The notes under the pieces are model-generated. The model had not been told where the DNA came from, made no database searches, and worked only from the letters and a program-made list of their open reading frames with translations. Both the position numbers and the translations under genes were made by a program. This document shows positions 40,163-42,775 of a DNA stretch of 64,000 nt, piece by piece (positions within the stretch are counted from its first letter, which is position 1; every line of letters starts with the position of its first letter). This stretch comes from a bacterium (GTDB lineage Bacteria > RBG-13-61-14 > DATKZS01): assembly GCA_963674965.2 (NCBI GenBank), contig CAXXFL010000007.1, positions 800,001 through 864,000 on the forward strand, read 5' to 3'.

Positions 40163-42775
40163 TTAATGCTCGGTCCTGGCGATTATCTCGTCCTGGACGT
40201 CCCTTCCCAGTTCCACGAAATAGGAACTGTAGCCGCCGATCTTGACTATCAGGTCCCGGTATTCGTCCGGGTTCTCCCGGGCTTTACGGAGGTCATCGGC
40301 CGAGACCACGGTCGGCTGTATCTGCGCCCCTCCCATCGAGAAATACGTCCTCATCAGGTCGGCCCACTTTTTTCTGGCCTCCTCGTTGAGGCCCACGCCG
40401 GTGGGATGGAATTTCACGTTCACCGCGCATCCCATCACGTCCTCATAGGGGAGGGCCGATATCGAGCGCAAAGCGGCGGTGACCCCGTTTTTCTCGACGT
40501 TGTAAGGATTGCAGCTCGCGGCGTAGGGCGTGGCCGCCCTCCTGCCGTCGGGAGAGGCTATGGAAAGCCTTCCGTCCACCGTGTGGGTTATCATGCTGAT
40601 GATATAAATGACGACGGGCCCGCCGGCGAAGGACCGGTAATCGTAGCTCATGTCGAAGATGCGTTTCATCACGTCGTGAGCCATGGCGTCGGTTTCCGGG
40701 TCTCCGTTCCCCCATTTCCCGGGAAGTTGCTTGATTTTAGCCAGCAGGTCCTCATGGCCCTTGTAGTTAATATCCATGGCCTCCATCAGTTCGCCTATGG
40801 TGACGTCCTTGTTCTCGTAGACAAGCTTCTTGATCACGTAGAGGGAGTCGATCATGTTGGCGATCGAGTTGATGGTGGACACGCCGGCGAACACGTATTT
40901 GCCGCCCCCATTGGTGATATCGCGGCGCTTTTCCAGGCAGTCCTGGACAAAGGCTGAGAGCATGGGGGCGGGTAGGCTCTCGGCGAAAATCCGGTCCCTG
41001 ATGTTTGACCCCTCCACTATCTTGTCCATGAAGAACCTGGCCTGCTTGTAGAGGGCCTCGAGGAGTTCGTCGAAGTCCTTAAAGGATTTCGGGTCTCCCG
41101 TGGCTGGACCGTCTCCCTTGATGGTCCCCGCCAGTATGCGGGAGTCCCCGTTCCGGAGGGTTATATCCAGGAGCCTCGATAACTGAAGCGCGTTGGCGCT
41201 CATGGGCCCGGTCTTGCCCGGGCAGGTGGTCTCGACGCAACCCATCACCGCGTAGTCCCTGGCGTCCTCCAGGCTGAAGCCCCGGTTGACCATGGACTGG
41301 ATATTCATCTCATCCGAGAACAGGGAAAAGGTGCTCGTGCCCTTGGCCGCGTACTCGGCCGTCTGGAAAAGGACCCGGTCGGGCGTCTTCTCGTGCACCC
41401 TGACCGACACGTTGGTAATGGCCTTGGACAAGTGGGCCGCCTCGAGGAATACATAGGTCAGCTCGTTGGAGGCGTCCTCCCCCTCGGGCGTGATCCCGGC
41501 CAGGGTGATGGGCGTGGAACCCAGGAAACGGTGATAGAAGTTGCTTAAGATGTTCGACTCGGGACGGATGTTCTGGGACATGACCTTGAGCAGAAGCTCG
41601 GCCAGAAGCTCGACCGCCCATTCCCTGGTGACTCGTCCCTCGCCGAGGTCCTTTTCATAAAAGGGGTACAGTACCTGGTCCATACGGCCGAAGCAATGCA
41701 GGTAAACGGGATGGGCCGTCTCGATGGCCGTCTTCAGCGTCCAGCAGGACTGCACGGCCTCCTCGAAGGTATCCGCCGCCTGGAGGGGGACCTTGCGGCA
41801 TATCTCGAGCATGCGCCTGAGACGGGCCTTGTCATCGTCGTCCCTCGCGGCCTCGAGGTCCCTCTCGAGGCGGCCGGCCAGGCGGCGGGCGTAGATCATC
41901 ACGCCCTCCACGGCTATATCGATGGACTTGAGGAATTCTTTTTCCTCATCCGCCAGACCCTCGCCCTGGCCCAGGAGTCCCTCTATCTCGCGCTTGATGG
42001 ACTCGAGGCCCCGGCCCAGGACGGGGCCGTAATCCAGGATGATATGGGCGTGGTAGCTGGCGATGGTGGCGCAGGTGGAGAGCATGATGACCTGGCGCGA
42101 GGTATTGCCGGGTATGGCCATGACGAAGTCCCGCATCTGCTCGGAGAGAAGGCCCGACTCGAGCAGTTCCTTTTCAATGAGGTCCACCGTGGTCTTGCCC
42201 TTCCAATAGGGAAGGAGCCTCGAGAGCATCTCCTTTTTATCCTTCTCCTTGATCTGGTAGGGGTTGATGGACCGCTCCGACATGGTCTTGAAATCCATGT
42301 TGAGGGGAGCCGTCCCGCTTTCGCGCGTCATTTTCTGGTTGCGGATGAATTCACCCAGCATCCTTTTTCTGGTCATGTATCCTATGCCCTTGGCCATGGT
42401 CTTGGCCCTGAACTTGACCATGCTTATCTTGTCCAACTCCGACTCGAGCACGGAGTTGAAAACGCCCCTCTCGATATCGATGGGAACGCCGAGGAAATAC
42501 TCGCACCAGTAGCCGGCTATACGGTCGTCGGGGTCAACGTAATGGGTCATCTTCTCGTAGACGTTCTTCATGGCCATGGCCACGCGGACGGGCGTGGAAA
42601 TGCCTTTGCCCTCGGTCGCCTTCCAACTCTCGGTGTAGTACCTGGCCCGCTCGACCGAAATGTAAGCGGGACCGGTCTGGTATTTTCTTCTCATGCGCCT
42701 TATGCGCTCGGCGCCGTCATTTTGCTTTTGCCCGGAGGAGATATCGTCCATTTTCATTACCGGCTGGCTGGCCAT
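40163..42775 (-). CDS. Glycyl radical enzyme (PFL superfamily) of unknown substrate
   Basis: [25 protein letters not shown] (thiyl Cys), KWGN, ASPDGR, C-terminal [26 protein letters not shown]. Confidence 0.93.
   Translation of the reverse strand: [870 protein letters not shown]

Follow-up and report, generated by a model that had tools for sequence, protein, structure and literature searches.

The window analysed here, a stretch of 64,000 nucleotides (positions 800,001 to 864,000 of contig CAXXFL010000007.1), carries on its minus strand a gene (40163..42775, ATG start) for a glycyl radical enzyme (GRE) of 870 amino acids, which we assign to an uncharacterised clade with a K-V/I-G-G-Y glycine loop. 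The open reading frame (ORF) is intact, and all five loops quoted in a preliminary description made from the letters of this DNA are found in the translation of 40163..42775. The gene stands 26 bp downstream of a gene for a TetR-family regulator (42802..43410, minus strand; Pfam TetR_N, 59 bits), which is the first gene of the operon, and it is followed by genes for an activase, two fused reductases of the short-chain dehydrogenase/reductase (SDR) type, a protein of the acetoacetate decarboxylase (ADC) fold and an acyl-CoA dehydrogenase (ACAD)-like flavoprotein.

Pfam recognised a PFL-like domain (PF02901, 469.6 bits) and a Gly_radical domain (PF01228, 72.4 bits) in the GRE, each over its cut-off. 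An AlphaFold2 model built on 53 sequences had a predicted local distance difference test (pLDDT) score of 88 and a predicted template modelling (pTM) score of 0.91, and a Foldseek search with this model returned 1r8w as the best match (TM 0.83, 28% identity), followed by HypD and propanediol dehydratase. Sequence identity was 25-29% to every solved GRE, and the top-scoring entries of the PDB, 6lon (2.7e-104), HypD 6vxc (2.7e-101) and glycerol dehydratase 1r8w (3.9e-99), are about equally distant. The protein has the barrel and glycine radical domains, the catalytic Cys and the cognate activase of the superfamily, and because the profile, fold and activase evidence agrees we file it there despite the Lys that replaces Arg in its fingerprint. 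It is thus a member of the superfamily by domain, fold and activase, and belongs to no named GRE family. Its surroundings in sequence space are similarly anonymous: only two of 53 neighbouring representatives pass an NCBIfam equivalog cut-off (HpsG), and none of the six nearest (P0124, P0127 and P0129-P0132) gave an equivalog match at 1e-200.

The glycine loop, K845-I-G847-G848-Y849, in which G848 is the predicted radical site, is read at 40229..40243 (minus strand), in agreement with the non-canonical LIVKIGGYS-type loop that had been pointed out earlier. The GRE fingerprint, as given in a 2026 review, is R-V-x-G-[FWY]-x6-8-[FL]-x4-Q-x2-[IV]-x2-R (PMC13450708). Taken strictly, the present sequence departs from it at position 1 (Lys for Arg) and position 2 (Ile for Val) and fits the rest; R-I loops occur in other GREs among the neighbouring representatives. 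No Lys was found at the position of K845 in the three solved GREs whose alignments were inspected. The 6.5-Mb genome codes for four further GREs, and in these the loop reads R-[VI]-[ST]-G-Y. Such a departure from the fingerprint, in a position where the inspected structures have no Lys, could mark a non-radical pseudo-enzyme or a decaying copy, a reading that we hold to be hardly credible. A word-indexed protein search gave 680 matches, and the best 120 of them (58-73% identity and 835-919 amino acids, the query aside) all carry K-[VI]-G-G-Y, 118 as KVGGY and two, the query included, as KIGGY. The loop is therefore not a private mutation, which settles the question of conservation that the preliminary description had raised. 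The same 120 sequences keep the Lys, both Gly residues, the Tyr and the rest of the fingerprint, the 870-residue frame is undamaged, a dedicated activase gene adjoins in 42 of 78 related loci, and more than one GRE lineage outside the clade has a Lys loop as well; in view of this strong conservation the pseudo-enzyme reading was rejected.

The distribution of the Lys loop was followed in an exhaustive search of 1.84 billion representatives clustered at 50% identity, from which the top 150 were taken. The glycine loop was readable in 130 of these and began with Arg in 114 and with Lys in 16, the latter being divided into seven K-V-G-G-[YF] and nine K-V-[AS]-G-Y loops; the Arg of the fingerprint is thus a matter of consensus. 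The scores fell from 1115 bits for a full-length clade member to 759 bits for a sister sequence with KVGGF and then to 441 bits, several fragments lying between the first two values. In a FastTree phylogeny of 147 sequences the clade was monophyletic (support 1.0) and nested in a group of 25 members (support 0.98), which comprises 17 Lys loops and an Arg-loop paralogue from the same genome, while five K-V-A-G-Y sequences were placed elsewhere in the tree. Since Lys loops are scattered over the tree, Lys must have arisen more than once at this position in GREs. Judged by the loop counts, Lys is fixed in the clade, yet Lys loops are not unique to it, and judged by tree and scores the clade is a large, distinct, tightly conserved and uncharacterised branch of the GREs. 

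The Arg-loop paralogue just mentioned (G000:C4:364064-366676, corresponding to 8065-10614 of locus L093, minus strand) is the closest GRE paralogue in the genome, with 31% identity and an RVSGY loop. It has 870 codons between stops and an ATG-initiated ORF of 849 amino acids, and falls in the same 25-member superclade. No activase gene adjoins it; it lies between genes for LVIVD-repeat and RHS-repeat proteins, an uninformative context.

The activase gene next to our GRE (39209..40117, minus strand) codes for a radical SAM enzyme of the GRE activase kind, in which two cluster motifs of the ferredoxin type are present (TIGR02494, 315.8 bits against a cut-off of 174.35; Radical_SAM and Fer4 domains). 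Its N-terminus reads SYAIYDGPG, as described before. The accompanying remark that His usually precedes DGPG was too broad, the two other activases of the genome having Glu and Asp there. Among the 38 clade-linked activases in which the residue could be read it was Tyr in 28 and His in 10, and all partner GREs had the Lys loop. No alignment column covaried with Lys845 in a way that held across the five independent K-V-A-G-Y lineages. Because Tyr and His both occur beside the Lys loop, Glu and Asp occur in other activases and no column tracks Lys845, we see no sign of a matched change in activase and GRE, and the earlier proposal of an altered activase docking loop is not borne out. The rules of loop recognition between activases and GREs are described as still open in section 2.5 of the review (PMC13450708). 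The genome as a whole has five GREs and three GRE activases scoring over the cut-off (on contigs C7, C5 and C6), therefore either some activases serve unlinked GREs or some of the GREs are orphans.

The Cys loop, G512-C513-V-E515 (41231..41242, minus strand), contains a C-x-E motif that aligns with Cys433/Glu435 of glycerol dehydratase, and corresponds to the single-Cys MGCVET loop reported earlier. By pattern G-C-V-E is present in 117 of the best 120 homologues, and C513, the counterpart of Cys433, is invariant in the 53 aligned clade sequences used for the residue conservation counts of the GRE. His244 (42044..42046, minus strand) is likewise invariant and aligns with high posterior with His164 of glycerol dehydratase. 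All pocket residues were assigned from pairwise HMMER sequence alignments to 1r8w and other solved GREs, and some assignments have low posterior. The alignment to 1r8w further pairs Y358/L359 with His281/Ser282, S420 with Tyr339 and I726 with Tyr640, and leaves a gap beside S526 at Asp447. We take the substrate contacts of glycerol dehydratase to be S282, Y339, D447 and Y640, with His164 and His281 also listed; four of the five quoted loops cover these presumed contact positions, and the fifth, MSANALQL, spans the gap at Asp447.

Across the 53 clade members there is little variation in the five pocket loops. H244, C361, R364, Y414, R416, S420, S526, I726, S727, T730 and H731 show no variation and H355, H360 and H415 are kept at 90% or more, whereas H242 of the 'HAH' segment is not conserved (consensus Q-G-H); the pocket had been called His-rich, and this description is correct apart from H242. 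A two-residue insertion, His415-Arg416, in the loop before S420 is found only in the clade and its sister. The loops had also been called unfamiliar, which does not apply to H244, given its match to His164. In glycerol dehydratase Glu435 deprotonates the carbinol hydroxyl and His164 protonates the leaving hydroxyl (PMC13450708, section 5.6.1). The sulfonate of the HpsG substrate is anchored, according to the same review, by Arg183, Gln187 and Arg672 (PMC13450708). These residues align with A239, H244 and Y724 of our GRE, the first two at low posterior, and segment 233-249 contains no basic residue (Arg or Lys). As the two Arg and one Gln anchors are absent, identity with the C-S lyases IslA, IseG or HpsG was rejected. 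From these alignments we conclude that the C-x-E apparatus of an eliminase is present in a pocket that fits no known substrate class.

A further peculiarity is a basic helical insert near the N-terminus (about residues 95-162; 42290..42493, minus strand), recognised by a gap against the PDB homologues, by predicted helices and by its conservation in the clade. Solved homologues align to residues 18-89 and resume at about 160, so that about 50 residues are absent from the solved GREs and conserved in the 53 clade sequences. In the AlphaFold2 model the insert forms helices at 107-113, 116-136 and 140-152, with pLDDT mostly 82-92. Residues 95-165 contain 13 Lys and Arg against 8 Asp and Glu, a net charge of about +5 in a GRE that is acidic as a whole. 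The long basic insert of the preliminary description is thus real. A membrane-binding role was considered and found no support: the helical hydrophobic moment (0.28-0.30) hardly differs from the protein-wide mean of 0.27, and the insert is not amphipathic.

Downstream of the activase lies a fusion gene (37357..39162, minus strand; Pfam Epimerase and adh_short) that joins an extended SDR, resembling aldehyde and cinnamoyl-CoA reductases, to a classical SDR of the 3-hydroxyacyl/3-oxoacyl type; in many loci the two are separate genes. The nearest PDB neighbours of the extended SDR are 3wj7 and the cinnamoyl-CoA and dihydroflavonol reductases, those of the classical SDR (3R)-hydroxyacyl-CoA dehydrogenase and FabG. 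The next gene (36534..37298, minus strand) codes for the ADC-fold protein (Pfam ADC PF06314, 166.9 bits), which reaches 62.1 bits against the cut-off of 150 in the NCBIfam acetoacetate decarboxylase model NF002614. Its P-K-K and Y-x-E motifs align with those of 3bh2/3bgt and are near-exclusive in motif tallies of 41 aligned sequences, whereas the N-R-E of the solved enzymes aligns with G-A-N and the carboxylate-binding Arg is lost. The residues concerned are presumably the Schiff-base Lys, the second Lys and the Glu of the decarboxylases, and we take the Arg to bind the carboxylate. Going by fold and by the aligned Lys-Lys/Glu set, the protein is a member of the ADC family that falls below the criteria for a true acetoacetate decarboxylase. 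The ACAD-like flavoprotein (35316..36518, minus strand; Pfam ACAD N, M and C domains) has butyryl-CoA dehydrogenase 1buc as its best PDB match, with YEGTNE of the latter aligned with MDGTNE. The Glu of Y-E-G-T is, as we assume, the catalytic base of the family; here its position is occupied by Asp, and in tallies of 40 aligned sequences I-M-D-[GA]-T-N is the rule, with a single AIGGGTSEI exception.

The cassette in the window may extend further, to a small SRPBCC/START-like protein (34623..35288, minus strand), whose gene begins 27 bp after the ACAD-like gene, and even to a CocE/NonD-type hydrolase (32711-34483) downstream of it. The former is a candidate operon member, with an Atlas feature score of 0.97 to SRPBCC clusters and a Pfam Polyketide_cyc2 match below the cut-off (E 8.5e-4), and has a homologue near the GRE in two of the 78 loci; no homologue of the hydrolase was detected in any of the 78.

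These loci were obtained by scanning one genome per GTDB species, and all come from metagenome-assembled genomes (MAGs). Six are labelled Asgard archaea, and the rest span at least eight bacterial groups; the labels include Myxococcota, Actinomycetota, Hydrogenedentota, Nitrospirales, Planctomycetales, Thermodesulfobacteriota, Gemmatimonadota and Syntrophomonadaceae. Neighbours were counted by tblastn over the 78 loci and over a subset of 38 with at least 6 kb on each side of the GRE. The set of TetR, GRE, activase, two SDR-type reductases, ADC-fold protein and ACAD-like protein is kept across phyla. An extended SDR or SDR gene was near the GRE in 48 loci (the extended SDR in 30 of the 38 with full flanks), an ADC-like gene in 45, Asgard loci included (25 of 38), an ACAD-like gene in 41 (23 of 38) and TetR in 38 (21 of 38); for the activase the full-flank count was 21 of 38. 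The extended SDR is therefore the most faithful partner of the GRE, a partnership that can be likened to the dehydratase/aldehyde-reductase pairs known elsewhere. In bacteria and in Asgard archaea alike the GRE is paired with the ADC-fold protein, and this suggests that the Lys enzyme takes the product of the GRE as its carbonyl substrate.

Unbiased clustering of ORFs revealed additional neighbours in parts of the clade. An MtaA/CmuA-like methyltransferase that has an additional domain at its N-terminus is the immediate neighbour of the GRE in 10 loci; corrinoid proteins are near the GRE in five, TauE-family permeases in 13 and a multi-pass membrane protein without family assignment in 10. In five Asgard loci (L044, L052, L053, L054 and L073) the GRE adjoins a GlcD-like FAD-binding protein, and all of these except L053 have the ADC-like gene as well; in L044 and L073 the genes of two GREs belonging to one cluster precede those of an MtaA-like methyltransferase and a corrinoid protein. 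A divergent branch (L072, L075 and L070; 51-53% identity) retains only the GRE and the activase of the cassette. Its GREs keep other company: a FadL/TodX-type outer membrane channel and a GDSL lipase in L072, a phospholipase/carboxylesterase in L075, and in L070 another GRE, a PaaK-like CoA ligase and genes for ABC transporters, including a branched-chain amino-acid-type permease. In the genome of the window, a protein of 577 amino acids with HMG-CoA_red_N-type and URO-D/MtaA-like domains (G000:C3:318726-320459, corresponding to 7726-9459 of L092, minus strand) is 73% identical to the product of the gene directly upstream of the GRE in L001; here it is unlinked to the GRE and its context is uninformative.

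The operon is headed by a palindrome, TTTAACT-N8-AGTTAAA (43424..43445, minus strand), which has a TTGACA-type promoter-like site on one side and the ribosome-binding site of TetR on the other. It was spotted by eye and then confirmed by pattern search, an automatic search for inverted repeats upstream of TetR having given none at its thresholds. Of the 78 loci, 25 carry a 20-bp consensus, TTAACTGGGCGNCCAGTTAA, with at most four mismatches at the start of the operon. In 23 of these it lies 4-150 bp before the first called gene, and in the other two (L033 and L040) at the equivalent place inside an over-long ORF call; it heads the operon whether TetR or the ADC-like gene comes first. In the 6.5-Mb genome 43424-43445 is the sole site with three or fewer mismatches, so that no further regulon member was found at that threshold, and nine sites appear at four mismatches. 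We regard the palindrome as the probable operator of TetR. Being conserved at operon heads and unique in the genome, it indicates that the cassette travels with its own repressor and putative operator.

Taken together, the recurrence of this repressor-controlled cluster in uncultured anaerobes of many phyla suggests that the GRE probably starts a new anaerobic pathway for the breakdown of a hydroxylated compound. It is likely, in our judgement, that the protein is a working GRE of a distinct clade and carries out a C-x-E type radical elimination on a hydroxylated substrate new to GREs; the reading that best suits the sequences is that of a new radical 1,2-eliminase that cleaves C-O bonds, or else of an isomerase that opens a ring. 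The preliminary description had proposed a new eliminase, and we retain the C-x-E type, the novelty of a clade without a curated name and a pocket unlike those of characterised members, while the eliminase reaction itself is put forward conditionally.

With the observed domains, conservation, phylogeny, synteny, operator motif and residue mapping as a basis, we infer radical formation, reaction type, pathway order and regulation as follows. On the pattern of glycerol dehydratase, G848 of the K-I-G-G-Y loop would lose a hydrogen to the radical SAM activase of the neighbouring gene and the radical would move to C513, whose thiyl form would abstract a hydrogen from the carbinol carbon of the substrate. 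E515 would then deprotonate the carbinol hydroxyl and H244 protonate a vicinal oxygen leaving group, either hydroxyl or alkoxy, which departs; the resulting carbonyl-conjugated radical would regain a hydrogen from C513. The carbonyl product would be passed on to the two SDR-type oxidoreductases, the Schiff-base (Lys-Lys) ADC-fold enzyme and the ACAD-like flavoprotein with its Asp base. TetR, bound to the palindrome, would keep the operon off until released by the substrate or an intermediate.

Several points weigh against this interpretation. The first residue of the fingerprint is Lys in place of Arg. The GRE falls short of the cut-offs of all curated models: it scores 488.5 bits against 678.2 for the NCBIfam subfamily TIGR01774, and among the equivalogs 437 against 1100 for HypD, 376 against 1000 for HpfG, 435 against 1000 for HpsG and 379 against 1050 for CutC. 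These failures, together with the missing substrate contacts of glycerol dehydratase and the missing contacts of the sulfonate enzymes, keep it out of every named family. The pocket mapping comes from sequence alignment, with low posterior for instance at the N-terminal anchors against 6lon. Where glycerol dehydratase has its presumed contacts S282, Y339, D447 and Y640, the GRE has L359, S420, a gap and I726. Its substrate is accordingly unlike glycerol, and only three conserved residues speak for the reaction type. The C-x-E motif is, according to the review, common to dehydratases, C-N lyases, C-S lyases and ring-opening isomerases (PMC13450708), thus the leaving group cannot be read from it; the conserved acid-type His favours oxygen. 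Neither a CoA ligase or transferase that would supply the ACAD-like enzyme nor a hydratase was found in the operon. Finally, 13 of the 38 loci with full flanks have no ADC-like gene nearby, and five lack the extended SDR, the ADC-like and the ACAD-like gene alike.

The alternative that survives best, although we think it unlikely, is a ring-opening isomerase in the manner of YbiW, PflD and HplG, in which the leaving O or N stays in the molecule and a cyclic ether or amine is opened to a keto product. The ADC-fold Lys enzyme would then cleave this product, as aldolases follow YbiW and PflD, and a Schiff-base enzyme directly downstream suits the cleavage of a ketone. The isomerases share the C-x-E motif and the same first steps with the eliminases (PMC13450708, section 5.7), and the solved ones are clear homologues of our GRE (8yjo, 6.4e-81; 8id7, 5.9e-79; 7vua, 1.3e-74). 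However, the dehydratase and sulfonate enzymes score better, with the E-values near 1e-100 given above for 6lon, 6vxc and 1r8w, and the cassette has no conserved gene for a sugar kinase, a phosphatase or a transporter of sugars; the match of H244 to His164 of glycerol dehydratase is compatible with either chemistry.

More speculative, and in our estimate improbable, is that the GRE cleaves, anaerobically and by radical chemistry, a C-O bond in glycerol or diol head groups that stem from lipids, such as alkylglycerol or other remnants of ether- or ester-linked glycerolipids. An alkoxy or hydroxyl group adjacent to the carbinol would leave; the aldehyde, whether set free or formed in the reaction, would be fed into an oxidation of the acyl-CoA type through the cinnamoyl-CoA-reductase-like SDR, the SDR of the 3-hydroxyacyl type and the ACAD-like protein, and the ADC-fold Lys enzyme would act on a beta-substituted carbonyl fragment. 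The hints in this direction are weak: the replacement of polar glycerol dehydratase contacts by Leu and Ile, the SRPBCC/START-like and CocE/NonD-type hydrolase genes downstream, the FadL/TodX porin, GDSL lipase and carboxylesterase at single divergent loci, and hosts that belong to many phyla of uncultured anaerobes and to the Asgard archaea. An insert that is not amphipathic speaks against it, and the methyltransferase partners would be left unaccounted for. If true, it would provide an oxygen-free route for the breakdown of ether-lipid necromass in sediments; we know of no described enzyme for anaerobic C-O cleavage of ether-lipid head groups.

Those methyltransferases speak for a C-N lyase that would act on an amino alcohol or a quaternary amine by CutC-like chemistry, an option we rate as slimmer still. 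The MtaA/CmuA-like enzyme in 10 loci and the corrinoid protein in five hint that some members of the clade may act on methylated compounds, the best NCBIfam match being a glycine-betaine-type corrinoid protein, and the ACAD-like protein weakly matches crotonobetainyl-CoA dehydrogenase (119 bits). In a variant of this scheme a carboxylate two carbons from the carbinol might lead to a beta-keto acid for the ADC-fold enzyme, which retains the decarboxylase Lys-Lys/Glu set. On the other hand, an acid-type His is invariant on the leaving-group side, where CutC presumably has Asp, and the CutC equivalog score is far from its cut-off (379 against 1050). The methyltransferase genes are missing from the present operon and from most loci, and where present they would fit O-methyl ethers equally well. 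An alkyl- or benzyl-succinate synthase, adding a hydrocarbon to fumarate, is extremely improbable. Metagenomic papers have given this annotation to PflD-like GREs from Asgard and other sediment MAGs, single-Cys PflD-like Asgard GREs are labelled 'Ass/Bss' in a paper on Hermodarchaeota (PMC8163825), and the clade occurs in six Asgard-labelled loci. However, the X-succinate synthases are far more distant (9o8u, 1.8e-54; 4pkc, 5.2e-50; about 1e-100 for the eliminases), the clade carries the C-x-E Glu and the dehydratase-type His, and no small-subunit genes were seen among the recurrent neighbour clusters, where an ORF floor of 90 amino acids could let shorter ones escape; this identity was rejected for the distant similarity and the presence of C-x-E.

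It is instructive to compare the proposed radical eliminase with the characterised GREs. The B12-independent glycerol dehydratase of C. butyricum (1r8w/1r9d) and 1,2-propanediol dehydratase (5i2a/5i2g, 9rco) have the same 10-stranded barrel, matching with TM 0.83 in the case of 1r8w, and also share the Cys-x-Glu loop, the His and an activase with extra ferredoxin-type clusters. The present GRE differs from the two dehydratases in overall sequence (26-28% identity) and in the Lys for Arg and Gly for Ala of its glycine loop, in its basic insert of about 50 residues, in the presumed glycerol dehydratase contacts, which have become Leu, Ser, a gap and Ile, and in that neither 1,3-propanediol dehydrogenase nor microcompartment genes are among the recurrent neighbours of the clade. 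HypD (6vxc) and HpfG/HpsG (6lon) give the highest PDB and NCBIfam scores (437 bits for HypD, 435 for HpsG) and have the same C-x-E, but the GRE remains far under their cut-offs (1100 and 1000 bits) and does not keep the sulfonate anchors of HpsG. With the isomerases YbiW, PflD and HplG (8id7, 8yjo/8id0 and 7vua) it shares the C-x-E, and would share the early radical steps and a downstream enzyme for a keto product; the similarity is weaker (about 1e-74 to 1e-81) and the cassette is without sugar-phosphate genes. The PflD-like GRE of Archaeoglobus fulgidus (2f3o), the function of which is disputed, is also of the PFL2 type with archaeal relatives (E 1.3e-96, TM 0.81), yet it represents a separate lineage, the Lys loop, the insert and the operon being properties of the present clade.

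GREs enable reactions otherwise closed to anaerobes, and each newly solved clade has so far revealed a new pathway, as for choline, hydroxyproline, sulfonates and anhydro-sugars. According to section 7 of the 2026 review (PMC13450708), entire clades and every PFL-like GRE of archaea are still without an assigned function. We found no published description of this clade, its operon or a Lys-type glycine loop in a search that had the supplementary GRE trees of PMC8163825 and PMC6258724 outside its reach, and no literature linking a GRE with acetoacetate decarboxylase and acyl-CoA dehydrogenase. New in this work are the conserved operator, the Lys loops beyond the clade, the null result for covariation, the failed test for sulfonate anchors and the Asp base of the ACAD-like partner. 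The clade is real and selectively maintained, with a variant fingerprint and an unusual, self-regulated set of partners. Its tight conservation, wide spread, fixed unusual partners and own repressor and operator make it a well-defined target, and we see in it more a clean object for the discovery of enzymes than a departure from the chemistry known for GREs. An inexpensive way to the inducer, and hence to the substrate, is offered by TetR with its 20-bp palindrome, and the Lys/Gly-Gly loop is a natural test of the variation that is tolerated in the glycine fingerprint and in recognition by the activase.

Some features upstream of the operon may be recorded here. The intergenic segment 43594-43757, upstream of the TetR promoter, contains two GC-rich CCGTAGGCGCCAGCCTACGG-like segments of about 20 bases, inverted and about 145 bases apart, each flanked by short CCCCTGAAAGGGG-type hairpins; by its sequence the segment has the appearance of a small repeat element, or else of an RNA with secondary structure. 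It is followed, on the same strand as the operon, by a gene for a DUF362 protein with a Tat-like N-terminus (43940-45145, minus strand), which is absent from all 78 loci. Beyond this gene lie, on the plus strand, a small ORF (45941-46240) that by eye is rpmE-like, and a gene for a peptide chain release factor (46355-47425; PCRF, RF-1).

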